Shown in pieces: positions 9,541 through 42,668 of a stretch of 64,000 bases of DNA (its first letter is position 1; each line of letters opens with the position of its first letter). The position numbers and the translations under genes were made by a program. A model generated the notes under the pieces. The model had not been told where the DNA came from and searched no databases. It saw only the letters and a program-made list of their open reading frames with translations. This DNA comes from an uncultured Acidobacteriota bacterium (GTDB lineage Bacteria > Acidobacteriota > Thermoanaerobaculia > Multivoradales > DATKCC01): NCBI GenBank assembly GCA_963843755.1, contig CAWJLS010000002.1, positions 193,279 through 257,278 on the forward strand, written 5' to 3'.

Positions 9541-12191
9541 CGCCGGAGCGCTGGCAACGGATCGAACAGCTCTTCGAGCACGGTCTGGAGGTCGAGCCCG
9601 ACGCGCGGCCCAACTGGCTCGACTCGACCTGCGGGGAGGACGACGACCTGCGCCGGGAGGTCGCCTCCCTGCTGGAAGCCAACGCCGCCGCCGAGGGCTT
9701 CCTGGAGCGGCCGGTGGCCGGAGGGGGCCGAGCGACCACCGACGGCGGGGGCGGCGTGAACGCGGCTCTCGACTGGATCGGCCGCCGGTTCGGCGTCTAT
9801 CGCGTGGTCGAAGCCGTCGGCGAGGGCGGCATGAGCACCGTCCTCCTGGCGGAGCGCGACGACGCCCAGTTCCGCGACCGGGTGGCGATCAAGGTGCTCC
9901 GGGGCGTCCCGGGGCCGCTGGCGGTCCAGCGTTTCGAGCGCGAGCGCCAGATTCTCGCCGACCTCGATCATCCGAACATCGCCCGTCTGCGCGACGGCGG
10001 GACTTTGGAAGAGGGTGTGCCCTACGTGGTCATGGACTACGTCGAGGGCGCGCCGATCGACAGCTACTGCGACCGGCAGGGTCTCGACCTCGCCGAGCGC
10101 CTGGAGCTGTTCCTGCGGGTGTGCGACGCGGTCCAGGCGGCCCACCGGAGCCTGATCGTCCACCGCGACCTGAAGCCGGCCAACATCCTGGTCACCGCGG
10201 AGGGGGAGCCCAAGCTGCTCGACTTCGGGATCGCCAAGCCGCTCGATCCGGAGGCCGGCCAGACGGTGACCCGGACCCTGTTCCGGGCCATGACGCCCCG
10301 CTATGCCAGCCCGGAGCAGGTGACCGGCAAGCCGATCACCACCGCGACGGACGTCTACTCCCTCGGGGTTCTCCTCTACGAGCTGCTGACCGGCCGGCCG
10401 CCCTACGAGATCGCCAACCTGTCCATGGTGGCCTGGCAGCGGGTGATCGCCGAGGTCGAGCCGCCCCGGGCGAGCCAGGTGGCGGAATCGCCGGGCACCG
10501 CTCGCCGGCTGCGCGGCGACCTGGATACGATCCTCCAGAGCGCCCTGCGCAAAGACCCTGCGCGGCGCTACGGCTCGGTCGAGGCGTTCGCCGACGACAT
10601 CCGCCGTCACCTGCGGGATCTGCCCGTCCGTGCCCGGCCGGATACGTTCCGCTACCGGGTCGTCAAGCTGGTCCGCCGCAACCGGACGACCGCGGCGCTC
10701 GCGGCCGCGCTCTTCCTGCTGCTCTCCGGCTTCAGCGTGTTCACCGCCCTCCAGGCGCGGCGGCTGGCCGAGGAGCGGAGCAAGGCGGAGGAGTCGCTGG
10801 ACTTCCTGGTCGACGTCTTCCGGGTGTCGGACCCGAGCTCCGGCGCCAGCTCGAAGAAGGCGGAGGAGATCTCTGCCAAGGAGATCCTGGACCAAGGTGC
10901 CCGGAGGGTCCGCTCCGAGCTGGCGGGGCGGCCGGAGATCCAGACCCGGCTGCTCCATGCGGTCGGCGAGGCGTACATCGGTCTCGGTGACCACGAGCAG
11001 GCGCTCGATCTCCTCCAACAGGCCTATGGGCAGAGCCGCCGCCTGCTGGGCCCCGAGGATCCCGAGACGGTGGAGATCCAGTTCCAGTTGGCCGGCGCTC
11101 AGGACGGGGTGGGGGACACGCACGCCGCGGTGGCGACGTATCGCACCGTCGTGGACGTCCGCCGCCGCCGGCTGGGGCTCGGCGACCCCAAGACCCTGGA
11201 GGCGATCTCCAACCTGGCCCTCGAGCTGGAATGGTCCGATAGGGTCCCCGAGGCGGAGGCGATGCTGCGCGAAGCGATCGAGGCTGTCCAGCGGCGGCGG
11301 GAGGGCGGCGCGACCCGGCTCGGCGACCTCTACTCCAGCCTGGCCCGGTGCCGCTTCCTCCAGGGAGATTACCCCCGGGCGGAGGCGCTCTACCGCCAGG
11401 CGCTGGACACTCTCGGGGCGAGCGATGGTGAGGAGAGCCTCGGGGTGGCGGCCACCTTCAGCAACCTGAGCATCGTCCTGATCCGCGAGGCGCGCTACGA
11501 GGAAGCGATCGCGGCCGAGGAGCAGGCGCGGGAGATCTGGACCCCGATCCTCGCTCCCGATCACCCGAAGCTCCTGGCGAGCCTGGTCACCACCAGCGCC
11601 GCCTTGCGCGAGCTCGGCCGCTACCAGGAGGCGGAGCAGTCCCTCCGTCACGTGCTGGAGGTCCGGCGCGAGCGCCTCGATCCGCTGAACCCCCGGCTCC
11701 TGACGACGGTCTACAACCTGGGGCAGGTGGTGGCGGACCAGGGGCGCTACGCGGAGGCGGAGCCCCTGCTACGCGAGGCCCTCGACGGCGCGGAGGAGGC
11801 GTTCGGCGAGCACGGCCGCTACGTGGCGACCGCCGCCAACAACCTGGGGGGCTGCGTGTTCCGGTTGGGCAGGCTGGACGAGGCCGAGGAGCTCGAACAG
11901 CGTTCGCTACGGGAGTTTCGCGCGCTCTACGGCGACGACAACCCGCGCACCAGTTGGCCGCTCCTGTGGCTCGGACGCATCGCCCTGGCCCGCGGCGACC
12001 TCGCGGAGGCCGAGGAGCGGGCGGCGGAGGCCGTGGCGATCCGCCGCAAGCTCCTGGCCCCGGATCACCCGGACGTGCGCGAGGCCGTGGAGCTGCTCGA
12101 CGAGGTCCGGGCCCGGCGCGGTGAGTCGGCGGGCGCGGCGGTCGACGGGGAGCTGGACGGGGAGCGGGGGGCGCCGGCTTCCGACGGATAG
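9537..12191 (+). CDS. Ser/Thr protein kinase with TM helix and C-terminal TPR repeats
   Basis: Hanks motifs HRDLKPANILV, DFGIAK and SPEQ. TM segment AALAAALFLLLSGFSVFTAL. About 450 aa of TPR-like repeats follow. Confidence 0.9.
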   Translation: MTPERWQRIEQLFEHGLEVEPDARPNWLDSTCGEDDDLRREVASLLEANAAAEGFLERPVAGGGRATTDGGGGVNAALDWIGRRFGVYRVVEAVGEGGMSTVLLAERDDAQFRDRVAIKVLRGVPGPLAVQRFERERQILADLDHPNIARLRDGGTLEEGVPYVVMDYVEGAPIDSYCDRQGLDLAERLELFLRVCDAVQAAHRSLIVHRDLKPANILVTAEGEPKLLDFGIAKPLDPEAGQTVTRTLFRAMTPRYASPEQVTGKPITTATDVYSLGVLLYELLTGRPPYEIANLSMVAWQRVIAEVEPPRASQVAESPGTARRLRGDLDTILQSALRKDPARRYGSVEAFADDIRRHLRDLPVRARPDTFRYRVVKLVRRNRTTAALAAALFLLLSGFSVFTALQARRLAEERSKAEESLDFLVDVFRVSDPSSGASSKKAEEISAKEILDQGARRVRSELAGRPEIQTRLLHAVGEAYIGLGDHEQALDLLQQAYGQSRRLLGPEDPETVEIQFQLAGAQDGVGDTHAAVATYRTVVDVRRRRLGLGDPKTLEAISNLALELEWSDRVPEAEAMLREAIEAVQRRREGGATRLGDLYSSLARCRFLQGDYPRAEALYRQALDTLGASDGEESLGVAATFSNLSIVLIREARYEEAIAAEEQAREIWTPILAPDHPKLLASLVTTSAALRELGRYQEAEQSLRHVLEVRRERLDPLNPRLLTTVYNLGQVVADQGRYAEAEPLLREALDGAEEAFGEHGRYVATAANNLGGCVFRLGRLDEAEELEQRSLREFRALYGDDNPRTSWPLLWLGRIALARGDLAEAEERAAEAVAIRRKLLAPDHPDVREAVELLDEVRARRGESAGAAVDGELDGERGAPASDG

Positions 12192-30980: not shown

Positions 30981-31303
30981 CAGTTGTCAGGCTATGCGGA
31001 CCAGGCCTGTTGACCCAAGGTGGGTTGTGCTTCGGGTGCACGGGTGGATGGCGTCAGTTGTCTTTCGCGAACGAAACAACCAGCCTGGCGTTGTCCAACC
31101 GGAACTCCAATCTCGCGAAGAGAAGGAGCCTAACCCATCTTCTACAGTCGCCGAGCCCTCCAAACGCGTAAGTCGTTTATTTCTGTAACTTGATCTGGCG
31201 GATTTTGGGGAAATCCCTGAATCCTGGTGCCAACTTTTTCCGGGATGCCTGTTGACGGGCAATGGATAGGGCGCTATTGTCTAGGTGTCAACCGGAGGCG
31301 CCA

Positions 31304-32947
31304 ATGTTCTTCCGACAGAAGACGGTCAAGGGCTACACCTACCTCCAGATCGTCGAGAACCGCTGGGAGAAAGGCCGAAGCCGTCAGCGGGTGCTCGCCA
31401 CCCTGGGCCGGCTCGACCAGCTCCGCGAAGAAGGGCGTCTGGAGGTTCTCCTCGAGTCTGGTGCTCGCTTTGCCGAGTCGATGCTGGTGCTCTCGGAAGT
31501 CCGCCGGGGCGAGCTCGCCACGAGTGCCTCTCGACGGATCGGCCCACCGAAGGTCTTCGAGCGGCTCTGGCACGAGACGGGCTGTGCCGAGGTGATCCGG
31601 AAGCTCCTCGCCGAGCGCGCCTTCGAGTTTCCCGTCGAGCGGGCGATCTTCCTCGAGGTGCTCCACCGCCTGGTGGCTCCCGGCTCCGACCGCGGCGGTG
31701 TCGAGTGGCGCCGGGCCTACGGGATCGACGGCGTCGAGGGCCTGGAGCTCCACCACGCCTACCGGGCCATGGCCTGGCTGGGCGAGCCGCTGGCCGAGGA
31801 GACCCCCGCCGGAGCGCTCGCTCCCCGCTGCACCAAAGACCGCATCGAGGAGGCCCTCTTCGCGCGGGACCAGGATCTCTTCTCCTCGCTCCAACTCGTC
31901 TTCTTCGACACGACCTCGATCTACTTCGAGGGTGAGGGTGGCCAGAGCCTCGGCCAGCACGGTCACAGCAAGGATCATCGGCCGGACCTGAAGCAAATGG
32001 TCGTGGGGATGGTCCTCGACCAGGAGGGTCGGCCGATCTCGTGCGAGCTGTGGCCCGGCAACACGAGCGACGTGACGACGCTCGTGCCGGTGGCCAAGCG
32101 GCTCCGGACGCGCTTCGGCATCGGCCGCGTTTGCTTGATCGCCGACCGGGGGATGATCCAGGCCAAGACTCTCCAAGCCCTGGAGGCCGAGGGCTGGGAC
32201 TACATCGTCGGTGCCCGGATGCGGAGCCAGAAGGAAGTGCGTGACGAGGTCCTCGGCCGAGGCGGGCGCTTCCGCCAAGTCGTGGGACCGCGCAAGAGAG
32301 CCAAGGACCCCTCGCCACTCGAAGTCAAGGAGGTGTGGGTCGACGAGCGGCGCTACATCGTCTGCCGCAACGAGGAGCAGGCGAGGAAGGACGCCGCCGA
32401 CCGGGAGGCGATCCTCGCCGCCCTCGAGAACAAGCTCCACGGCGGCGCGACATCGCTGGTCGGCAACCGCGGCTTCCGGCGCTACCTCTCGGCGAAGGGG
32501 AAGGGCTTCCAGATCGATCCGGGCAAGATCGAGCGCGACCGGCGCTACGACGGCAAGTGGGTGCTGCGCACCACCACCGACCTCGATGCGGCCGACGTCG
32601 CCTGGGCCTACAAGCAGCTCTGGACGGTCGAGGAGATCTTCCGCACCATGAAATCGTTGCTCGAGACCCGCCCGATCTGGCACCGCCTCGACGAGACGAT
32701 CCGCGGCCACGTCTTCTGCTCGTTTCTGGCCCTGCGGCTGCGCTTCGAGCTCGAGAGCCGCCTCGCCGAGCGCGGTGAGAGCTTCGAATGGGCCTCCGTC
32801 CTCCGCGACCTCGACCAGGTCGAGGAGATCGAGGTGGAGAAGAAGGGCACCCGCTTCGTCCTACGCTCCGAGGCCCCGGGCTCGGCCGGCAAGGCCTTCC
32901 AGGCTGCCGGCGTCGCCCTGCCTCCCACGGTTCGGAAGGTGAGCTGA
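31304..32947 (+). CDS. IS1634-family (IS4-like DDE) transposase
   Basis: ATG 31304 after GGAGG. MFFRQKTVKGYTYLQIVENRWEKGRSRQRVLATLGRLDQL N-terminus. DDE context FFDTTSIYFEG, LIADRGM. The element's ends were not resolved. Confidence 0.85.
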   Translation: MFFRQKTVKGYTYLQIVENRWEKGRSRQRVLATLGRLDQLREEGRLEVLLESGARFAESMLVLSEVRRGELATSASRRIGPPKVFERLWHETGCAEVIRKLLAERAFEFPVERAIFLEVLHRLVAPGSDRGGVEWRRAYGIDGVEGLELHHAYRAMAWLGEPLAEETPAGALAPRCTKDRIEEALFARDQDLFSSLQLVFFDTTSIYFEGEGGQSLGQHGHSKDHRPDLKQMVVGMVLDQEGRPISCELWPGNTSDVTTLVPVAKRLRTRFGIGRVCLIADRGMIQAKTLQALEAEGWDYIVGARMRSQKEVRDEVLGRGGRFRQVVGPRKRAKDPSPLEVKEVWVDERRYIVCRNEEQARKDAADREAILAALENKLHGGATSLVGNRGFRRYLSAKGKGFQIDPGKIERDRRYDGKWVLRTTTDLDAADVAWAYKQLWTVEEIFRTMKSLLETRPIWHRLDETIRGHVFCSFLALRLRFELESRLAERGESFEWASVLRDLDQVEEIEVEKKGTRFVLRSEAPGSAGKAFQAAGVALPPTVRKVS

Positions 32948-33233
32948 GCGAGGCTGACCGGCCGCAAACCTCGATTTCATGGTGCCAACGCCGAATTGCG
33001 CCTGCGTAAGTGGCGCAAGGTCAGTGAGTTACGATTGGGCACTGTAGAAGATGGGCTTGAGGGTGCCCTGGGGAGACACGGTGGCTGCGAGTGGACCGCG
33101 TCAGGCCAGATCGTGAGGTCAACCCTGGAACCCCAAGGGGTCCTTGTATGGCATGTACGCGAAACCTGTATCGAGAACCTCGCACCAAGCCCGGCTTGGC
33201 CGTTGGATCTTGCGGACCACAGCTTCCCCGTGC

Positions 33234-35285
33234 TCAGTACGCTAGGTCGTCAAAGAGGGTGGCGTGGCCGTCGTTGATGGGGGGGAGGACGACACGGGCC
33301 CCGTGACGGATGGGTTGGACAAGGGTGTGCTGCTGGACCCGCGCCAAGACTTCGTCAGATTCGATGCGCTTCCGGAGCCAGCGCTCTGTCCACCAGAGGG
33401 TGATCTCCTCGGTGGTACGTTCTGGCTCACTCATGTCAAAGAGATACTCTGGCTCAGTATCCATCCCGAGGAGAAACTCACGCAGATTCCTGACGAGCGG
33501 CACGCCGTAGACGATGCGCTGCCTTCCATGCTGGAGTAGGGCGTCGGCTGGCAGATTGAGCGCGTCGAGACCGGCTCGGACTTTACGGAGTTTCGGGCTT
33601 ACGCCCTCACCGAATATGCTGTTGACCCTCTGGCCGTTGCTGGATTGCTGGACCAGGGAGACGAGAGCGTCGACTGTGTCCGAGCTGAATTGCGAGGTAC
33701 CATAGGCTTCGGACTTACCAAGCTCGCGGAAAGCGATCCGCTCACCCTCGGCGCCATCAATGCGGTCGGCCGGAATGTGCAGCCTGTTGTATTGACTAGA
33801 TCCGACTCCGTAGAGTGAGGTCGTCCCGAGAAATACCAACTCTGAGGGTCGAACAATAGGCTTACCCGCTATCGAAGACGCGATTTCGCTCTCCTGCTCA
33901 GCGTACTTCTTTCGATAGGCGGCGACCATTTGCGGGCTCACAGCCAACATAGAGACGAGTTTCCCACCGAGGATCGGGTTGTATGGAGCGACCGCACCGC
34001 AGACGGTGATATCGGCCATTGCGATCCCAACTCGGTCCGCCTTGGCTTTTCGGAGCACCTTCTTCACGATACGCTGTCCGTCTGCGGTCCCCAGCAGCGT
34101 GCGCACCTCATCTCGGGTTGGCGGCGAGGATAAGTACTCCTGGAGAACCATCCGCGAACGGAGCATGTCGGCCAGAGAGAGTGCGCGCTTGCTGCGATAG
34201 AGATGTGCTCGGGCGCGCATTCGCCAGTGAGCTTCGGTGCTGCCGGTTTGGTCGCGTTTCGCCGAGTGCTTCAAGTCTTGCGATCTAGCGAGCCGGTGGT
34301 GGAGTTCCCGCTGCTGCTCTCCGTGTTTGATGAGACGTTGAAGCGCTGCGAGCGTCGGAGCACGGAGTTCGGCTGGAGAGAGCAGTTCTTCCTCGAAGAA
34401 ATCGTCGAGATGAATCTCCCCGATTGCTGTCTCCACCGTCTTGCGGAGCCAACTTCCGAGCTCTGCAGACGGTGCCTCGCTCACAAGTTCCATGAACGCT
34501 TCGGGGTGCCATCCAATCCAAGCGTCCCGTTCTCGGATCTGAACGATTGGGCTCCCTAGAGACCCGATCCCAATCACGGGGTGGTACTCGCGAGCTCGAT
34601 CGCGGACAAGGAATGCCATCGAGCGTCCAGGTGTATTCGTGTATTGGTTCGTCCATGTATGACGAAAATACCGCCAAATGTCTTGGGTGCGGAGCCCGGT
34701 GTATTCGCAATACTCAACTTCATCTACGAACTGGATGTACGGGTTGATCACCGCCCTTAGTGCGCGGATGCGCCTATCTCCAGTTAGCGACCTCGCAGCG
34801 CGGAGCGACTCAGCAAGTTCGCGCCCGTCCCGGATTATTGAGTAGATCGAAACGAAGTGTCCATTGTGGACGGACCTCTTCTCCATCCCCTTGATGAACC
34901 TCCTCGTCGCGGCCTCTCGGAGCTGTTCATCGCGCTTGACAAGCTCCTGGGCTTTGATGCGCGCCTTCTCGCGCCCTGGGTCGAGCTGATCCCCTTCCGG
35001 GCGCTTTACCTCGACATCGCCGGCCTTGGTGACTTGGATCGACCAGCGCTGGCGAGCGAGGTCAGTCAGCACGCACAGCGCTGCGCGCAAAGCGGTCGCG
35101 CAGGCGTCAGGGCTACCGAGGCGCAATGATTCATTGAGCGCCTCGTCGAAGTTCTCACCGTCATCATTGTTGGTCAGCAACGCGGATAGCCGCGTGGCGT
35201 GGTTGCGGAAAGCCTGCTTTGCCGCGCTGCGCTCCGAGAACGGTGGAGAGAGCACAACCCAGTTGTTGTGTGCTTGACGGCCCAT
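33234..35285 (-). CDS. DruA-like DUF4338 domain protein (683 aa)
   Basis: GRSMAFLVRD...VIGIGSLGSPIVQIRERDAWIGW, ITVCGAVAPYNPILGGKLVSML and LGTTSLYGVGSSQYNRL resemble the DUF4338 core. Its start lies 3 nt after the upstream stop. Confidence 0.65.
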   Translation of the reverse strand: MGRQAHNNWVVLSPPFSERSAAKQAFRNHATRLSALLTNNDDGENFDEALNESLRLGSPDACATALRAALCVLTDLARQRWSIQVTKAGDVEVKRPEGDQLDPGREKARIKAQELVKRDEQLREAATRRFIKGMEKRSVHNGHFVSIYSIIRDGRELAESLRAARSLTGDRRIRALRAVINPYIQFVDEVEYCEYTGLRTQDIWRYFRHTWTNQYTNTPGRSMAFLVRDRAREYHPVIGIGSLGSPIVQIRERDAWIGWHPEAFMELVSEAPSAELGSWLRKTVETAIGEIHLDDFFEEELLSPAELRAPTLAALQRLIKHGEQQRELHHRLARSQDLKHSAKRDQTGSTEAHWRMRARAHLYRSKRALSLADMLRSRMVLQEYLSSPPTRDEVRTLLGTADGQRIVKKVLRKAKADRVGIAMADITVCGAVAPYNPILGGKLVSMLAVSPQMVAAYRKKYAEQESEIASSIAGKPIVRPSELVFLGTTSLYGVGSSQYNRLHIPADRIDGAEGERIAFRELGKSEAYGTSQFSSDTVDALVSLVQQSSNGQRVNSIFGEGVSPKLRKVRAGLDALNLPADALLQHGRQRIVYGVPLVRNLREFLLGMDTEPEYLFDMSEPERTTEEITLWWTERWLRKRIESDEVLARVQQHTLVQPIRHGARVVLPPINDGHATLFDDLAY

Positions 35286-35288
35286 TGA

Positions 35289-36848
35289 TCATCCGTTTAG
35301 GAAAGTAGCGAGCGTGTCGCTCCACCCGGCCCGCAGTTGCTCCGCGACCTCAAGCGTCTCCGTTCCCTCGAGCAGTGCCTCGGTACGCGCCGCCGCAAGC
35401 AGCAGTAGGTCGATCTGCGACCGCACCGTCTCGTCCCTGGGGTTCTCGGACTCGAGTAGTGGCTTGTACACAAGCTTGTAGAACGGGTGATCTGGGTTGA
35501 GGACGAGGACTAGCCGTCCCTTGTCTCGCGCATAGTTGAAAAAAGAGGTCTCGCTCAATGCGGTTGGGACGATCCGATACTCGGTCAAGGTGTCGTTGTC
35601 ACTCCCTGAACGCGCTGTTGGGGGCAGCGTCTTTCCCAGTGCTCCGAGGATCCTCTTGTCGCGCAACCGCGGCTTCGGCGGCAGGGGAGCCAGCGTGTCG
35701 TCCTTCTCGCTCGCGCGGTTCTCAGACGAAGTGAATCGCTCCGCGATCTTCGCGTTGAGGTGAGCCTTCCTTGCGCGGCTGTTGAGTGCACGCGCTGTCG
35801 CCTCCATGTCGGCGCTCAGCGCCTCTACAAGGTGGGGGCGTGGCCGGATCTGTTGCTTGGTGTGCGTGATCCCAAACGCCTCGTCCAGGATCGGATCGAA
35901 CATGATCTCGCAGCGCCACCAGTCGTCATAGTTCTCCCGCCGCTTCCCTCCGAGGAAGAACCAGCCGTAGTCCACTTCGCGACCACAACGGACGACAGAA
36001 ACACCAGCGCCTTTGGCGATCCCACGGGCCCGCTTCTCTTTGTTGCTGAGCTTCGACCACTCGGCGACAGGCAACTCCGAGAACCGCACCTTGACGAACC
36101 CTGTCTTACTCAGGTCTTCGGGGTCGGTAGCAATCTCGTAGACCAACTCCTCCGCGAACTGGCTCGCACCGCTGTAGAGTGCGTCTGGGTGGAGAAAGAG
36201 GGGGTCGATGGGCTGGACTGCGTCACCGTTCACTGTGATAGTCGTCCCGCCCCACAAGAAGTGGCGGAATCGCCTTCCAAGAGCCACTAAGAGCTTCCGT
36301 GTAATGGTCGAGATGCGGCGGTTGTCCAGCCTGTCGCAACGACTCCAGGTCACCGCGGTGCCCGATCCGTATCCGTTGACGAACTCCGGCCTCCTGACCC
36401 GGCTCGGTTTGGGGACCTCGGTCAGTTTGCCGGACACGATCTCCTCGAGGTCGAGGTAGGAGGTGAGTACCTGGCCGCGTCCTGTGGTCCAGGTATGCAC
36501 CGTCACCCGCTGGGCCTGGCTCAATGAGCTGTTGGGTAGGCCCATGCCATAACGCCCAAGGCCTCTTCGATCGTCGAAGCGAGTACTGCCGCCGAATCGG
36601 AGCGCGGTCCGCAAGGTTCGAGAGTCCATACCAGAGCCGTTGTCGATGACGGTGAGGATGAGCGGATGTTGATCCTCGTCCTCGTCCACCATGACCGACA
36701 CTGCGATCGACGTAGCGCCCGCCTGTAGGGAGTTGTCGACAAGTTCGGCGACAGCGCTCGCCGTGCCCTTGTACCCTGAGTCGCGCGTAGCCTGGATGAA
36801 CCTGTCGACCGCGACAATCGAGAAGTCCTGATCCCCGGATGCGTTCAT
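35289..36848 (-). CDS. GHKL (Bergerat-fold, MORC/HATPase_c_3-like) ATPase, paralog 1
   Basis: N-box AELVDNSLQAGA, G1 box IDNGSGM, G2 box GRYGMGLP. Shared paralog motifs FGITHTKQQI and NPDHPFYKLVY. Confidence 0.8.
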   Translation of the reverse strand: MNASGDQDFSIVAVDRFIQATRDSGYKGTASAVAELVDNSLQAGATSIAVSVMVDEDEDQHPLILTVIDNGSGMDSRTLRTALRFGGSTRFDDRRGLGRYGMGLPNSSLSQAQRVTVHTWTTGRGQVLTSYLDLEEIVSGKLTEVPKPSRVRRPEFVNGYGSGTAVTWSRCDRLDNRRISTITRKLLVALGRRFRHFLWGGTTITVNGDAVQPIDPLFLHPDALYSGASQFAEELVYEIATDPEDLSKTGFVKVRFSELPVAEWSKLSNKEKRARGIAKGAGVSVVRCGREVDYGWFFLGGKRRENYDDWWRCEIMFDPILDEAFGITHTKQQIRPRPHLVEALSADMEATARALNSRARKAHLNAKIAERFTSSENRASEKDDTLAPLPPKPRLRDKRILGALGKTLPPTARSGSDNDTLTEYRIVPTALSETSFFNYARDKGRLVLVLNPDHPFYKLVYKPLLESENPRDETVRSQIDLLLLAAARTEALLEGTETLEVAEQLRAGWSDTLATFLNG

Positions 36849-37642
36849 TCGCCTGACTCCGTAGCTTCCTCGTTCGCCTTGCCCATCACCTTGACCTCCA
36901 CTCGCTCCATCACCATGGACTGGCCGAGGTCAAGCTGCTCGACGTGCTTGACTACGGTATCCCACTTGGTCGGGCGGTGATCTCCACGCGCGCGATCTCC
37001 TCTCGTACTAACCTCTCGTAGGCTCTCACCGTGTCCACGACCTCCTGATCGCCGGGGTGCTCCATCCTCGTCGTCCGACAGCGAGGTAACCCGCTCAACC
37101 CGGAGAGCGAGAGTGTGGAGGAGGGTCGGCGGCGCTTCAGGCTCGGCTGCTTCTGGCAGGCGGCCGACCGCGTCCGGTTTTGTCCCCAGGTGGTGGTTCG
37201 GGAACATCGCCGACCGCCCCTCCGGCTCGAGATGCCTGGCGAGTTCCACGTGTCGGCCATGGTCGTGGAGAGGGTAGTCGGGATTCTTCGGCTTGTTCTT
37301 CGGGCGGTACGATCTGCGTAACGCCACGGCCGACGGCGGCCCAGAGCCTAAGGCTCCGGACTCGGCAGAAGAGACCGCTTCGGCTTCGGACGCGCGCCGC
37401 ATGACCAGGGAGAGCCTACCCAAGGACAGGGCAGAGAAGATACTCCCCGACAAATCGAGCGGCTCGGCCCGTGACACTGGAGAAAGTGGTGGGTTCCCCC
37501 GCGCTTTGCCAGACGAAGCCAGCGGCGCCAGAGGCGAGGCTACGCCTGAGCCCGGGGTGGCGTCGGCGAGCGAACTGGAAGGGCTGGTTCGAAGAGGTGG
37601 GCTGCCTGTGGGGCGGCTGCTAGACTTCTCGTGGTTCTGCAC
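36845..37642 (-). CDS. Hypothetical protein (S/P-rich N-terminus), first gene of the GHKL-DUF4338 operon
   Basis: GTG 37642 lies 10 nt after AAGGAGG. ATGA overlap with the GHKL start. No recognisable domain. Confidence 0.5.
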   Translation of the reverse strand: MQNHEKSSSRPTGSPPLRTSPSSSLADATPGSGVASPLAPLASSGKARGNPPLSPVSRAEPLDLSGSIFSALSLGRLSLVMRRASEAEAVSSAESGALGSGPPSAVALRRSYRPKNKPKNPDYPLHDHGRHVELARHLEPEGRSAMFPNHHLGTKPDAVGRLPEAAEPEAPPTLLHTLALRVERVTSLSDDEDGAPRRSGGRGHGESLREVSTRGDRARGDHRPTKWDTVVKHVEQLDLGQSMVMERVEVKVMGKANEEATESGE

Positions 37643-38192
37643 GGAGCTATATCCTCCTTGCGGGATCGGGCCCGGGTGAGTTGCAGCTCGCCCGGGCCGC
37701 TTCTGGGATGGCCCTGGAGGTTAGACCCTAGGGCCAGCGTCTCAAAGAATAACGCTCTGATACCGCCATTCTAGGGCCTCGGAACGCAGAAGTCAAGCAG
37801 TTCGCGAATCTGGTCGCCTCCACGGCGTGTGCTCGGCGCCTTCCCCTCCAACCGTTTGGGGCGTTCGCCGTAGTCCCAACTCCGAAGCGGAGCCTCCGCT
37901 GACCGCTGCCTCAGAGCCCTTCCCTCCGGAGCTAGGATGCCTCGGAATGCGTGTCTACTTGGAGCCGAGAGTCCGACGACCCTCGCAAGAAGTCACCGCC
38001 GGGCGAGGCGAGGGGGTTATCGGATGTCGATGCGGTTGTGTGTATACTCCTGAACGGCAGGCGAGGTCCTCGCCCTAACCAGGCTCCGAAAAATGGGGCC
38101 TATAGGCAAAGGTCGAAGATCGTGCCACGGGAGAGCCTCTTCTGCTGCAACTGACGGACGAGCCGTCAGGATTGACAGAAGAGAGGCTCTCA

Positions 38193-38759
38193 ATGAAGAC
38201 GACGCAACCTGTTCTGTGCGCAACGTCGTCGGCGCACATCTCCCCCTCTAAATCCCGCCCCAACACGGAGGACGGAACCCTTGAGCGCTGGAACGACGAC
38301 ATCGTCCAGGCCTCCCGCGCGTGTGCTCGCAAACGTGGGCTGCAAGCCGACCACCCCTTTGCTGATGACGTCGCCCAAGAGGTGCGCTTGGCGCTCGTAC
38401 TCGCCATCCGAAAGACAGGTATCAAGGACGAGCGGTACCTCCGGCGCGTAATCAGCAACAGTGCGAAGAATTCAACGCGACAGACGCTGGTCGTCACTCG
38501 GGAGGTCTCTGACGACTCCATTGAGGAACTCCCGCAGGAGCAGCCAGCGGTGCGCGACGTCCTCGCCGAGCGCCGTACCCGAGAGTGGCTTCACGACTTG
38601 CCGAGACAGCTCAAGGCAGTGTTCCACTTGCTGTATCGAAGAGGCCTGAGTCAGCGTGAGGCTGCCGTGTGCCTCGGGGTGAGCCAGCCTCGCGTAGCGA
38701 AGCTCCACCGACAGTTGCTCAGGTGCGGTGCAGATGGGCTGCGCGACCTGGCAGCCTGA
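38193..38759 (+). CDS. Sigma-70/ECF-like small sigma factor or HTH regulator
   Basis: Region-2-like DDVAQEVRLALVLAIRK. Region-4 HTH LPRQLKAVFHLLYRRGLSQREAAVCLGVSQPRVAKLHRQ. Confidence 0.6.
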   Translation: MKTTQPVLCATSSAHISPSKSRPNTEDGTLERWNDDIVQASRACARKRGLQADHPFADDVAQEVRLALVLAIRKTGIKDERYLRRVISNSAKNSTRQTLVVTREVSDDSIEELPQEQPAVRDVLAERRTREWLHDLPRQLKAVFHLLYRRGLSQREAAVCLGVSQPRVAKLHRQLLRCGADGLRDLAA

Positions 38760-38865
38760 TTCGACCACGCCGCACGGACCGGTGGGCCACGCTCGTGCGA
38801 TTTCAACTCGGCCCGATCTGGCGGCTCCCAAAAACGGGGCTGTCGCAATAGCAAGGAGAAGAACT

Positions 38866-40707
38866 ATGACACAGCAGAAGATGACTACAGAGACCACGGA
38901 GCGGCAGCGCAAGTACGTGAACGAACAGAAGGCCAAGGGGCACGGCCTCGGAGTCGTGTTCGCAGATGCATTCCTTCGGGGGATGCGCGACATCGGGTAC
39001 AAGGACCCCGCCTGGGCCCTCGCCGAGCAGATCGACAACGCCGTTCAGGCGGCCGCCAAGACGATTTCGCTCCGTTTCAGCTTCGACAAGAAGAACAAGA
39101 GTCAAGCCAAGCCCGACCAACTCGCGCTGGTCGACGACGGCAACGGCATGATCCCCGAAATGCTCGGCTACGCCGTTCGCTGGGGTGGGACGGATCGCGA
39201 GGGCGATCGGCAAGGATTTGGTCGCTATGGGTACGGGCTGCCGAGTTCTGCCGTCAGCATTGCCAAGCGGTACACGGTGTACTCGAAGACCTCCGAGTCG
39301 CCATGGCACTCGGTGACCGTCGACATCGACGAACTCGCATCGGCTGCCAGCGACATCAAGCGCACTGAGGAACTCCTTTCCGCTACGCCGGCGAAACTGC
39401 CGAAGTGGCTTGTCGAGGCTGAAGATCAGATCGATCTGGCGAAACTCGAGTCCGGGACGGTAGTCGTACTGGAGGACCTCGACCGCTTGCGGGCGACCAG
39501 TGGATGGAAGAAGGCCGACACGATCAAGACAAAGCTTCTTCAGCATTTCGGTGTGATCTACCGGCATTGGTTGGGGGAGCGGCGGATTTTCGTCCACGGG
39601 ATCCGCACTCTGCCCGTCGACCCGCTTTTCCTAATGGAGCATGGGCGGTTTTTCGACGAGACCTCCATTCGAGCTATTGGTGTCCAGACCCGGACGTTCG
39701 AGATGGAGACCTCCCGGAAAACAAAGGGGACGGTTACCATTCGTGCCGCGCTGCTACCACCGAACTTCCAGTTGAAGACGCCGCCGGGACGCCTCAACTC
39801 GAATGGCGATATTGCCGGCCCGACTAACGACCGATTCAAGATCATGAAGGAGTTCAACGGGCTCCTTATTTGCCGGGAGCGCCGGCAGATCGACTGCGTC
39901 TCTCCGCGCTGGACGAAGTTCCAGAACTACGACGCGCACGTGAAGGTCGAGGTCGATTTCGACCCCGAACTGGACGAGTTCTTCGGCATTACTACTGCCA
40001 AGCAGCAGATTGTGATCGCGGATGAAATGTGGGAGAAACTGCAGCACAGCGGTCGCGGAGGTGGTGGACTAAAGGACTTGGTCAGGGACCTGCGTAAGCG
40101 GCTGGATGAACTGCGTGACGAACTCAAGGCGAAGCTCAAGTCCACCGAGGGAAAGGACGAGCCTCGCCCTAGCGCCATCGCGATGACTGAGACTGAGAAG
40201 TTCAAGGTCTCGACGACCGAGCCGACGCGGGAGCATCGTGAGGAGGCGGAGCGCAACCTCGACCGCGAAGCGAAGGAGCGCGCCGAGGCCACTGGAAAGC
40301 GCCACGAGGAGGTCGTGGAGGAACTCCGTCAAGAGATCTCCAAGCGCCGCTGGGAAGTGGAATTCGCGGCGATCCCGGAGGGACCTTTCTACTCGCCAAA
40401 GCGCCTCGGTGAGCAGAAGCGCATCGTCCTCAACACGGATCACCCCTTCTACTCGAAGGTCTATGAAATCGCGCCGGACGTGAGCGCCGCACTCGAGGTC
40501 TTGCTGTTTGTTCTCGCAGAGCGAGAGCTTGAGTCCTTTGGGGACGCGGAGATCTTCTACAAGGCCGAACGGCAGCGCTGGTCCGAGCGGCTACGCTATG
40601 CCCTCGACGTGCTCACGACAGACGAGGACCTCGCTGACCGTGCAGCGGCGATAGCGGAAGCCATGTACCTGAATGATGAAGCGACCCCGCCACCATCGAT
40701 CGAGTAA
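38866..40707 (+). CDS. GHKL (MORC/HATPase_c_3-like) ATPase, paralog 2, with charged coiled-coil insert
   Basis: ATG 38866 after AAGGAGA. AEQIDNAVQAAA, VDDGNGM and GRYGYGLP. FGITTAKQQI and NTDHPFYSKVY match paralog 1. Confidence 0.8.
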   Translation: MTQQKMTTETTERQRKYVNEQKAKGHGLGVVFADAFLRGMRDIGYKDPAWALAEQIDNAVQAAAKTISLRFSFDKKNKSQAKPDQLALVDDGNGMIPEMLGYAVRWGGTDREGDRQGFGRYGYGLPSSAVSIAKRYTVYSKTSESPWHSVTVDIDELASAASDIKRTEELLSATPAKLPKWLVEAEDQIDLAKLESGTVVVLEDLDRLRATSGWKKADTIKTKLLQHFGVIYRHWLGERRIFVHGIRTLPVDPLFLMEHGRFFDETSIRAIGVQTRTFEMETSRKTKGTVTIRAALLPPNFQLKTPPGRLNSNGDIAGPTNDRFKIMKEFNGLLICRERRQIDCVSPRWTKFQNYDAHVKVEVDFDPELDEFFGITTAKQQIVIADEMWEKLQHSGRGGGGLKDLVRDLRKRLDELRDELKAKLKSTEGKDEPRPSAIAMTETEKFKVSTTEPTREHREEAERNLDREAKERAEATGKRHEEVVEELRQEISKRRWEVEFAAIPEGPFYSPKRLGEQKRIVLNTDHPFYSKVYEIAPDVSAALEVLLFVLAERELESFGDAEIFYKAERQRWSERLRYALDVLTTDEDLADRAAAIAEAMYLNDEATPPPSIE

Positions 40708-41105: not shown

Positions 41106-42668
41106 CTAGGAGTCTGCGCGGCAGGAACCGGCGTGGGTAGAATGCCCCATGTCCACGACGTTCAGGCCGTACGAGCCGGACCAGAGCCTGCTTCTGCCAC
41201 CGTCTCCTCGGGACTGGCTTCCTGAGGAGCATCTGGCGTACTTCATCTCGGACACGATTGAGGCGCTGGACCTGAGCGGGTTCTTCGCGCGCTACGAGGG
41301 GGACGGTCGTCGCAATCGTCCCTACCATCCGGAGATGATGGTGAAGATTCTGGTCTACGCCTATTCGACCGGGGTGTTCTCCTCGCGCAAGATCGCCAAG
41401 AAGCTCGAGGAGGACGTGGCGTTCCGGGTGCTCGGGGCGGGCAACTTTCCGGCGCACCGCACGATCTGCGACTTCCGGCACGACCACCTGGAGGAGTTCG
41501 GCAAGCTGTTCGTCCAGGTGGTGCGGGTGGCCCGCGAGTCGGGGATGGTGAAGCTGGGCACCGTGGGGGTGGACGGCTCGAAGGTCAAGGCCAACGCCAG
41601 CCGCCACAAGGCGATGAGCTACAAGAGGATGAAGCAGGAGGACAAGCGCCTTCGGCGCGAGATCGACGAGCTCTTGGGTCAGGCCGAAGACCAGGACGCC
41701 GAGGAGGATCGCCTCTACGGTCCGGACCGGCGGGGCGACGAGCTTCCGGAAGAGCTGCGGCGGCGCGAGGATCGGCTCAAGACGATCCAGGCCGCCAAGA
41801 AGCGCCTGGAGCAGCGCCAAGCTGAGGAGGACCGCAAGAAGGGGCGTCACGAGGGGGACGAGCGCAAGAGCCCTCGGGGTGGACCCCGCTTCGCCCGGGA
41901 CTTCGGGGTGCCCGAGGACAAGGCCCAGGACAACTTCACCGATCCAGAGAGCCGGATCATGAAGACCTCCCGAGGCTTCGAGCAGTGCTACAACCCGCAG
42001 ATCGCCGTCGACGACGAGCACCAGATCATCGTCGCGACCACCTTCACCAACAGTGCGAACGACATGAGGCAGCTCGAGCCCCTGGTCGACGCGATCGACC
42101 GGGTGACGGACCAACGGCCCAAGCGGCTGCTCGCGGACGCCGGCTATTGCTCGGAGGAGAACTTGAGCCGCCTGGAGAAGCATGGGATCGATGCCTACGT
42201 CTCGCTCGGCCGCGAAGGAAAGGAGGCGCCCGAGAAGGACCTCTCGGGCAAGCCCGCCACCGCACGGATGCGCGAGAAGCTGGCCACCGAGCAAGGCAGA
42301 CGGCGCTACGCCAGGCGTAAGGCGATCCCGGAGCCGGTCTTCGGCTGGATCAAGAATGTCCTCGGCTTCCGGCAATTCAGTCTCCGGGGAGAGCGTAAGG
42401 CGGGCGGTGAATGGGATCTGGTCTGCCTCGCCACCAACCTGCGGCGCATGAGGAACCTCGCGAGGGCGGCCGGATGAGCCAACTCGGTCCAGCTCGCGGG
42501 CTCGGGCTCCTGCCAGGCGGCTGCGTCGCCTTCGCCGAGGTCCCGCTCACCGGACATCCGGTCGGCCCAACACCGGACCCGGCCTCGATTCGACGGCTCG
42601 GCCACCCGGCGAGGCGCGGGAACCACCGATTGCCGGGTCTACGCGCGTCCTGCCGCGCAGACTCCTAG
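41106..42668 (+). mobile_element. IS1182-family insertion sequence
   Basis: Perfect 21-bp terminal inverted repeats CTAGGAGTCTGCGCGGCAGGA (41106-41126) and TCCTGCCGCGCAGACTCCTAG (42648-42668) flank the transposase gene. Confidence 0.85.
41149..42477 (+). CDS. IS1182-family transposase
   Basis: MSTTFRPYEPDQSLLLPPSPRDWLPEEHLAYFISD...YHPEMMVKILVYAYSTGVFSSRKIA N-terminus. Charged coiled-coil middle. DDE C-terminus (LLADAGY). Confidence 0.9.
   Translation: MSTTFRPYEPDQSLLLPPSPRDWLPEEHLAYFISDTIEALDLSGFFARYEGDGRRNRPYHPEMMVKILVYAYSTGVFSSRKIAKKLEEDVAFRVLGAGNFPAHRTICDFRHDHLEEFGKLFVQVVRVARESGMVKLGTVGVDGSKVKANASRHKAMSYKRMKQEDKRLRREIDELLGQAEDQDAEEDRLYGPDRRGDELPEELRRREDRLKTIQAAKKRLEQRQAEEDRKKGRHEGDERKSPRGGPRFARDFGVPEDKAQDNFTDPESRIMKTSRGFEQCYNPQIAVDDEHQIIVATTFTNSANDMRQLEPLVDAIDRVTDQRPKRLLADAGYCSEENLSRLEKHGIDAYVSLGREGKEAPEKDLSGKPATARMREKLATEQGRRRYARRKAIPEPVFGWIKNVLGFRQFSLRGERKAGGEWDLVCLATNLRRMRNLARAAG

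Follow-up and report, generated by a model that had tools for sequence, protein, structure and literature searches.

What does a small sigma-like gene do beside a GHKL-type ATPase, back to back with a second, paralogous ATPase and its DUF4338 partner? This arrangement is found in a 64,000-nt stretch of DNA (the window) from an uncultured Acidobacteriota bacterium (GenBank assembly GCA_963843755.1, contig CAWJLS010000002.1, positions 193,279 to 257,278 of the forward strand). The sigma gene and the ATPase downstream of it (GHKL-B; together sigma-B) face away from the second ATPase (GHKL-A) and a long DruA protein (together A-DruA). A preliminary description of the sequence had offered two readings, namely variants of one system type with swapped partner modules, or a regulatory arm of sigma and ATPase controlling the opposite operon. 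The analysis reported here shows a cassette related to Druantia, in which the sigma/ATPase module is undescribed and the leader RNA new. On balance, we favour the view that sigma-B is a self-contained mobile module with its own promoter and a two-state leader, and that with A-DruA it forms a helicase-less relative of type I Druantia, most likely a defence cassette. The copy in the window is rearranged and flanked by insertion sequences (IS), and it may or may not be active. The cassette is made up of the following features.

38017..38048, + strand: conserved promoter-like motif, TTATCG (-35-like) and TATACT (-10-like)
38054..38127, + strand: leader RNA domain 1, a long irregular hairpin (covariance model R1, 84.9 bits)
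38131..38191, + strand: leader RNA domain 2, with an anti-Shine-Dalgarno (anti-SD) strand GGAGAGCCUCUUCUG predicted to pair with the Shine-Dalgarno (SD) region of sigma, and a variable apical hairpin
38193..38759, + strand: sigma-70-family gene, 188 aa, with sigma2 and sigma4 and without sigma3
38822..38842, + strand: second A-loop hairpin, CGGCUCC-CAAAAAC-GGGGCUG, 8 nt upstream of the GHKL-B SD
38866..40707, + strand: GHKL-B, 613 aa, with GHKL domain, transducer, charged helical arm (402-493) and C-terminal domain (496-605)
35289..36848, - strand: GHKL-A, the 519-aa paralogous ATPase, upstream partner of long DruA
33234..35285, - strand: long DruA (DUF4338), 683 aa, matching PADLOC DruA1 (PDLC00001) at full length (E 5e-202) and Pfam DruA (PF14236) at 4.7e-31

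One genome per species was scanned, and the four proteins of the window were mapped onto loci anchored on GHKL-B. Sigma, GHKL-B, GHKL-A and long DruA cluster in over 20 loci, a cultured strain, Corallococcus exercitus SDU142, being among the carriers; the loci belong to Myxococcota, Acidobacteriota, Planctomycetota, Gemmatimonadota, Proteobacteria, Methylomirabilota and Binatia. The usual order is a co-directional sigma, GHKL-B, GHKL-A, DruA with gaps of 20-250 bp; some loci are convergent, and one is ordered A-DruA-sigma-B. The preliminary description had proposed to ask whether sigma-GHKL pairs recur next to GHKL-DUF4338 operons, and they do: of 21 GHKL-B loci whose flanks are well covered, 18 have GHKL-A and DruA, and 20 have at least one of DruA and DruE.

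A second set, of 80 metagenome loci, was anchored on DruA. GHKL-A adjoins DruA in 56 of the 58 loci with upstream sequence. Where at least 9 kb lie downstream (35 loci), a DruE1-type helicase without sigma-B was found 29 times, sigma-B without DruE three times and neither three times. Sigma-B and DruE are nearly exclusive in this set, which is compatible with sigma-B as an alternative output. DruD1 and a weak DruB1 match accompany DruE in related loci. Elsewhere sigma-B and DruE are both present (L010, L015, L016, L025 and L066), and three loci (L026, L124 and L125) have sigma-B with DruE and without A-DruA. DruE1 was absent (E <= 1e-30) from 11 whole genomes with the four-gene cassette. It was also absent from the window's own assembly, in which PADLOC model PDLC00013 gave only two weak generic-helicase matches (E 1e-8); this assembly is 82% complete, and the absence is no proof. 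A-DruA is the core pair, to which sigma-B and DruBCDE are partner modules, and the four-gene form recurs as a variant without the helicase.

Pairwise identities among 19 four-gene loci are significantly correlated both within modules (r 0.86 for A-DruA, 0.72 for sigma-B) and across them (r 0.43-0.58; Mantel test, p <= 0.0025). The idea of variants with swapped partners holds in so far as the modules are semi-independent, each pair being found with the DruE helicase and without the other pair. It fails on its central point: the two are not alternatives, and they co-occur in 18/21 loci, mostly as one operon, with correlated divergence.

Several relatives depart from the usual composition. A family of ~335 aa without Pfam or PADLOC match stands directly 3' of long DruA in 13 loci (L003:9884-10906 on the - strand, L010, L015, L016, L019, L047, L053, L059, L062, L065, L071, L086 and L101). 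This fifth gene is optional; the window does not have it, and an IS lies downstream of DruA there. On one Polyangiaceae contig (L005/L006/L027), sigma-B stands beside a DruA of ~995 aa followed by open reading frames (ORFs) of ~537, 449 and 1016 aa; these downstream ORFs have no PADLOC match, and the operon lacks GHKL-A. An Acidobacteriota locus (L024:9191-15570) has GHKL-B, GHKL-A and DruA each split into several frames and still carries a leader of 62.6 bits; it is either a pseudogenised copy or the product of assembly errors.

The leader RNA upstream of sigma (142 nt) has two domains. Domain 1 (74 nt) carries an apical A-loop hairpin, GGCUCC-AAAAAAU-GGGGCC in the family and GGCUCC-GAAAAAU-GGGGCC in the window, and the invariant GGCAAAGG. 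The covariance model R1 finds 31 loci at E <= 0.001, eight of them outside the seed. The element always lies just upstream of sigma or GHKL-B and occurs in no DruE-only locus; it is single-copy in its own genome, with a window score near the top of the family. On the model-fitted alignment, 86.7% of the cells of domain 1 pair, versus 54% with the partner slid by one column, and compensatory changes occur at 14/23 pairs; none of 500 shuffles reached the observed values. The leader matched none of the 4227 Rfam families. The sole family at E <= 1, SorX, matched elsewhere in the spacer and was set aside as a chance match. A search with R1 of 400 Myxococcota genomes found the element in the centre genome only (1/401), a weak negative with 12 candidates scored per genome.

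Domain 2 concerns the ribosome-binding site of sigma. In the predicted fold the SD, GAGAGG at ~38181-38186, is paired to the anti-SD strand. This anti-SD:SD helix appears in the minimum free energy (MFE) folds of the window (whole-leader z -5.7) and of 12 other loci, with leader z-scores across loci from -1.8 to -6.4. Folds were bounded at the start codon, since RNAduplex against long downstream sequence was too noisy (GC-rich coding sequence competes), and in such folds SD nucleotides are paired at 107/115 positions over 23 leaders. The pairs flanking the SD covary (GCCUCC:GGAGGC versus AUCUCC:GGAGAU). A local hairpin, GGCGAG/CUCGCC, was considered as the first leader helix; it is possible in the window, and its loop is too small in most relatives. 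The long-range pairing, rather than this hairpin, is the consistent MFE solution.

The anti-SD strand has a second potential partner. The 5' strand of domain 1, GCAGGCGGAG, is complementary through GCAGGCGGAGUUCUC to the anti-SD strand (..CCUCCUCCUGC), with a predicted dG of -14 to -26 kcal/mol. Matched changes are seen in this alternative helix (UCGGG:CCCGA in L013, GAAGG:CCUUC in L021), and cognate pairs are more stable than non-cognate ones (permutation p = 0.0004). Taken together, domain 1, the anti-SD:SD helix and the alternative helix point to a two-state, riboswitch-like translational lock on sigma. Of the marks of a riboswitch-like element, the covariation-backed structure was found on the model-fitted alignment, and the SD-occluding platform and the alternative fold are present as predictions. 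An upstream ORF was also considered as the function of this region: in the window, a frame of 20 codons begins at an ATG within the AAAAATGG loop, and the corresponding triplet is ACG, AGG or TCG in many loci, so this reading was dropped.

The A-loop hairpin is found a second time, before GHKL-B. Its family form is CGGCUCC-AAAGAAY-GGGGCUG, 8-16 nt before the GHKL-B SD; a strict 7-7-7 hairpin with A-rich loop stands there in at least 22 of 32 loci, and its stems covary. In five loci, among them the window, R1 matches this spacer in part (model positions 28-48). Because a second copy of the apical hairpin stands before GHKL-B, its repetition before both the sigma platform and GHKL-B suggests a protein rather than a small molecule as the ligand. 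GHKL-B is the preferred candidate for an autoregulatory sensor acting on the leader, because it is the only protein in every locus with the RNA, including L026/L124/L125, which are without A-DruA, and L016, apparently without sigma. In L016, a weak leader copy (26 bits, 9658-9726) stands directly before GHKL-B. The sigma-B spacers (38760-38821 in the window, and those of other loci) begin with a strong G+C-rich hairpin of variable sequence and without a U-tract. Words like GGGCUCA/CUCAC lie between this first hairpin and the A-loop hairpin, and the leader likewise has CUCAC before its apical hairpin.

A conserved promoter-like motif precedes the leader. When k-mers were counted in the 300 nt before each of 27 sigma genes, some 8-mers proved common to 14-21 loci, versus at most 5 in shuffles, and the shared words are collinear. 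The family motif is TTATC(G/A)-N17/18-TATAWT. Throughout 1.6 Mb of related loci, TTATC-N17-19-TATAxx has 20 matches; 17 of these lie 113-178 nt upstream of sigma, and one further match stands before the leading gene of an operon with changed gene order. The window itself contains the motif once, versus 0 expected by chance. As judged from sequence, TTATC-N18-TATAWT is a candidate target of sigma and equally resembles a housekeeping promoter. One locus (L023) has the order B, B-like, DruA, sigma, with the promoter motif before B (3826) and a weak leader copy before sigma (9872-9941).

The same approach was applied upstream of GHKL-A. A sigma-dependent promoter there was rejected, with no k-mers above shuffles in 11 loci having A-DruA as a separate unit and in 54 sigma-less loci; the k-mer signal upstream of GHKL-A in B-adjacent loci is GHKL-B coding sequence. 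The proposal that sigma drives the '37642 operon' is thus unsupported: the promoter motif lies upstream of GHKL-A in no locus, and the 265-aa ORF at 36845-37642, considered as a third gene, has no Pfam or PADLOC match and no homolog in ~120 loci, and is treated as spurious. A sigma-70-like promoter, TTGACT-17-TAGAAT (10/12 matches), faces GHKL-A from ~900 nt upstream in the window (37768-37796, - strand). Relatives share only the 200 bp next to GHKL-A (36849-37048).

The sigma-like ORF itself was found to encode a true sigma-70-family protein. Single-sequence Pfam matches are weak (Sigma70_r4 7e-6, r2 4e-3). A profile of 20 family sequences matches FliA at 1.6e-18 over two stretches, one for sigma2 and one for sigma4, as well as SigF, SigB, WhiG and the extracytoplasmic function (ECF) factor SigE, including the sigmaF of the SpoIIAB complex 1l0o. 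The AlphaFold2 (AF2) model has two helical domains (predicted local distance difference test, pLDDT, 85), and its significant Foldseek matches are all sigma factors, of ECF and group-3 structure. It is a minimal sigma-70-family protein with sigma2 and sigma4 and without sigma3 (ECF-like or minimal group 3). The protein is unique in its own genome, with 195 bits versus at most 50 bits for the other host sigmas. The family hidden Markov model places a sigma upstream of GHKL-B in 24 of the 26 loci with enough upstream sequence. On the Polyangiaceae contig L005/L006/L027, the sigma frame has no stop and runs for 317 codons into the start of GHKL-B.

GHKL-B was first described as a 659-aa open frame (38728-40707) with a start proposed at ATG 38866. 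The frame exists as given, and the 613-aa product of that ATG fits both the homolog lengths and the database's own call: almost all of the 120 GHKL-B homologs listed are ~613 aa long (mostly 599-634 aa), and an AAGGAG stands 8 nt before it. GHKL-B has at least 788 homologs; across distant phyla, identities run from 57 to 89%. The claimed paralogy with GHKL-A was confirmed by pairwise alignment (BLASTP, 28% identity over 568 columns, E 3e-40), in which the two match end to end, beyond the Bergerat fold. The motifs said to be common to both are real, FGITTAKQQI aligning with FGITHTKQQI and NTDHPFYSKVY with NPDHPFYKLVY. Residues F373, K379, Q380, N523, H526 and F528 are invariant in a 57-sequence alignment of both paralog families, as are the GHKL boxes, intact in both proteins (E54/D57/N58, D90-G92-G94, G119/G122/G124). 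K379 in FGITTAKQQI would be the phosphate-sensing lysine. Because the Bergerat motifs, K379-Q380 and N523/H526/F528 are invariant, both paralogs are probably active ATPases with a family-specific transducer loop and C-terminal domain.

In the AF2 model of GHKL-B (pLDDT 86, predicted template modelling score 0.74), the GHKL domain is followed by a beta-rich transducer, then by long helices spanning 402-493 and a mixed C-terminal domain. The model comes closest in structure to TRAP1/Hsp90, MORC2/3/4 and SMCHD1; 420-490 columns of the model align with the ATPase modules of MORC2/3/4 and SMCHD1 at probability 1.0, as expected of an S5-like transducer. Pfam assigns HATPase_c_3 (PF13589, 1.6e-16), and PADLOC gives a weak MzaB match. 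The extra K/E-rich coiled-coil insert of the preliminary description corresponds to the long charged helices 402-493 of the model, but it is not a clean insertion: GHKL-A has a linker at the same place, ~24 residues shorter and uncharged, and the GHKL-B arm is an elaborated, longer, charged helical form of this common linker.

A regulatory arm fits these findings better than swapped variants, since sigma-B behaves as an optional add-on to DruA/DruE and sigma lies under a conserved, predicted RNA switch; the proposed control of the 37642 operon is unsupported. The favoured mechanism would run as follows. The module would be transcribed, weakly, from the conserved TTATC-N18-TATAWT promoter. By default, as MFE folds and covariation suggest, domain 1 would be closed, with the anti-SD strand on the ribosome-binding site of sigma, which would remain untranslated. 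An infection-related cue, perhaps a ligand or the release of a protein from the A-loop hairpins, might open domain 1. The opened 5' strand would then capture the anti-SD strand and free the SD, through the alternative helix to which the cognate versus non-cognate comparison points. Sigma would bind core RNA polymerase, boost its own operon and possibly redirect the polymerase more widely. The MORC-like ATPases, as homodimers or an A/B heterodimer, and the GNAT-like DruA may act on the invader, to judge by their families. The GNAT assignment of DUF4338 is taken from published work (PMC10853773); a DruA profile gave nothing significant against PDB sequences.

A more specific version of the mechanism, tentative and somewhat unlikely, is that the leader or an RNA-GHKL-B complex is itself the infection sensor, and that a phage cue unlocks a private sigma that reprograms RNA polymerase in helicase-less Druantia-type immunity. 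If true, this would be RNA-switch-to-sigma immune signalling without described precedent, with the sigma-B module in place of the DruE helicase module.

Several points weigh against the favoured explanation. The covariation of domain 1 was counted on a model-fitted alignment, and RNAalifold on a plain MAFFT alignment recovers the apical hairpin only. The spacer from TTATC to TATACT is 21 nt in the window versus 18-19 nt in all relatives (2 nt longer), and the promoter may be weakened in this copy. Upstream of GHKL-A, where A-DruA is a separate unit, no conserved promoter was found as a sigma target. The closest sigma-B relatives (81-85% identity) are attached to HTH-DruE-NERD and not to A-DruA, and the closest A-DruA relatives (78% DruA identity) have DruE and lack sigma-B. 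Because the nearest relatives of each module differ in their partners, the modules may have been joined recently, each having lost its helicase partner to flanking IS elements. Finally, a literature search found no paper on the four-gene form or its anti-phage activity, and none combining DruA/DUF4338 with GHKL/MORC or a sigma factor.

The relatives closest to the window's GHKL-B (77-85%) are L124:157-10912, L125:707-11416 and L026:9299-19874. They encode sigma, GHKL-B, a 67-aa HTH_17 protein, a 2053-aa DruE1-type helicase and a NERD-UvrD helicase. GHKL-A and DruA were not detected in them; the sequence covers flanks of 10 kb on each side in L026 and less than 1 kb upstream of sigma in L124 and L125.

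An IS element stands at either end of the cassette, which bears on the first rival explanation.

31134..33055, + strand: IS element with a DDE_Tnp_1 transposase at 31262-32947, 179 bp downstream of the DruA stop
41149..42477, + strand: IS1182-type transposase gene (Pfam DDE_Tnp_1, DUF772, DDE_Tnp_1_6), ~440 bp downstream of GHKL-B

The first of these elements ends in perfect 15-nt inverted repeats (31134-31148 and 33041-33055). DNA homology to relatives covers 38015-40668, beginning exactly at the promoter motif, and 33194-37048, and the ~970 bp between the modules (37049-38014) have no DNA match to relatives of either. The divergent order is found in the window alone among ~45 loci. The two modules may thus be a recent combination, or may recently have been cut back by the IS elements on either side. 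Taken further, these observations could mean that the locus is an inactive remnant, the stumps of an A-DruA...DruE and a sigma-B-HTH-DruE-NERD operon whose helicase ends were lost by IS-mediated deletion; we hold this to be unlikely. Insertion sequences do lie 179 bp past DruA and ~400 bp past GHKL-B, where relatives have further genes, and the nearest relatives of each module have the DruE that the assembly lacks. However, none of the four ORFs is truncated, the leader ranks among the better-scoring members of its family (84.9 bits), and no HTH, DruE or NERD remnants were found in the window. The helicase-less form is also common, as the 11 carrier genomes without DruE show, and a missing DruE proves little in an assembly of this completeness.

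Lower still stands a partner-switching pair, in which GHKL-B would be an anti-sigma factor like SpoIIAB or RsbW, releasing sigma on ATP turnover or a cue, with the RNA setting basal levels. The adjacency of sigma and GHKL-B in 24/26 loci, their co-divergence and the group-3 sigmas among the best PDB matches of the sigma profile (FliA, SigF, SigB and WhiG, with the sigmaF of 1l0o) all agree with it. Anti-sigma kinases of the SpoIIAB/RsbW type are small (~145 aa) single-domain HATPase_c proteins. GHKL-B, by contrast, is a multi-domain protein of the MORC/Hsp90 type with a transducer, and only HATPase_c_3 matches it. Moreover, its paralog GHKL-A works without any sigma in its neighbourhood in most loci, and L016 apparently keeps leader and GHKL-B without sigma. 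Partner switching is thus quite improbable.

We give slightly less weight to a role outside defence, as a module for mobile-element maintenance or competition, such as transcriptional control of an integrative element or plasmid. The IS flanks of the window would suit it. So would the sigma-less relatives on mobilizable Rhodobacterales plasmids, where they stand next to ParB, and the patchy distribution, with no GHKL-B ortholog in 400 genomes of the window's own phylum, Acidobacteriota, and the RNA in 1/401 Myxococcota genomes. The tight linkage to DruA and DruE, components of an experimentally validated defence family (PMC7251935), speaks against it; no GHKL-B relative was found on the viral contigs searched, which thus yielded no phage-borne copies, and a patchy, island-borne distribution is equally typical of defence systems. 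Because of the 0 orthologs in 400 own-phylum genomes, the locus is taken to be horizontally acquired. The plasmid copies, at 35% identity, have no sigma and only generic annotation. One of them (L122, NZ_CP083555.1, 77616-91147, on a mobilizable plasmid of Leisingera, Rhodobacterales) encodes two GHKL ATPases, a DUF4338 protein and a DruE-like DEAD/DEAH helicase, and is sigma-less.

The least probable alternative, that the modules are two independent systems brought together only by clustering of defence genes, as in the first option of the preliminary description, is disfavoured: each module does occur without the other and their nearest relatives differ, but A-DruA is found in 18/21 GHKL-B loci and a Druantia component in 20/21, mostly in one operon with gaps of 20-250 bp, and the cross-module co-divergence is significant.

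The reading of sigma-B and A-DruA as a helicase-less Druantia relative can be set against known systems. Type I Druantia consists of DruABCDE (Doron et al. 2018, as summarised in PMC7251935), DruE being a helicase with DEAD, Helicase_C and DUF1998 domains, and for this system PADLOC holds the models DruA1, DruD1 and DruE1. Like it, the window has a full-length DruA1 beside the sigma/GHKL-B locus, and related loci have sigma-B and A-DruA beside DruE1, DruD1 and a weak DruB1. Unlike it, the window has no DruB, DruC, DruD or DruE among the ORFs around the locus and the assembly lacks DruE, four-gene forms occur in genomes without DruE, and two MORC-like ATPases, a sigma and a leader RNA are present, none of which is in the published definition.

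The ATPases share with prokaryotic MORC/paraMORC proteins (Iyer, Abhiman & Aravind 2008, PMC2292703) and MzaB the GHKL-transducer architecture and a conflict-system gene context. They differ in having no methylase or restriction endonuclease partner, and in forming two diverged paralogs with DruA; in that paper there is no mention of a sigma factor or of an acetyltransferase as partner. In type III CRISPR, the CalpL-CalpT-CalpS system releases an ECF-like sigma by a protease activated by cyclic tetra-adenylate (cA4) (bioRxiv 10.1101/2024.05.08.593097; PMC11417357). Both it and the present locus have a small, dedicated sigma within an immune locus, inactive until a signal arrives (here as a prediction). 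In place of a protease-cut anti-sigma, however, the predicted lock here is an RNA over the ribosome-binding site, and there is no CRISPR, SAVED or Lon. The leader resembles translational riboswitches and protein-binding leaders in its predicted sequence of an aptamer-like domain, an anti-SD:SD helix and a mutually exclusive alternative helix. It differs from them in lacking a match among the Rfam families and in the second copy of its apical hairpin before the next gene.

To our knowledge, the working mechanism of type I Druantia has not been established, and DruA is without an assigned role. The family described here shows long DruA constantly paired with a MORC-like ATPase, and suggests that the helicase is dispensable, or replaced by a sigma/ATPase module carrying a conserved, predicted RNA switch. 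It adds a structured RNA family of ~140 nt with two mutually exclusive predicted folds and, after CalpS, a second case of an immune locus with its own sigma factor. RefSeq labels these genes only 'ATP-binding protein' and 'DUF4338 domain-containing protein', and the system is thereby invisible to current annotation.

The wider setting is that of an island. Against ~70% G+C for the window and for the genome, 30-52 kb is an island of 60-66% G+C, in which an IS, DruA (-), GHKL-A (-), a spacer of ~1.3 kb, the sigma gene, GHKL-B and the IS1182-type transposase gene follow one another. Open frames near the locus comprise transposases and a TPR fragment besides the four cassette genes, and SIR2-TPR and PIN genes with IS elements inside the same island make up a defence-island setting. 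In other loci of the family, the neighbours include helicases of the PDC-S37/Hhe-like and NERD kinds or a toxin-antitoxin gene. A Phycisphaerales locus (L017:15919-21735, - strand) has the four-gene cassette followed by a convergent gene for a 1938-aa PDC-S37/Hhe-like helicase protein, which fits a defence island.

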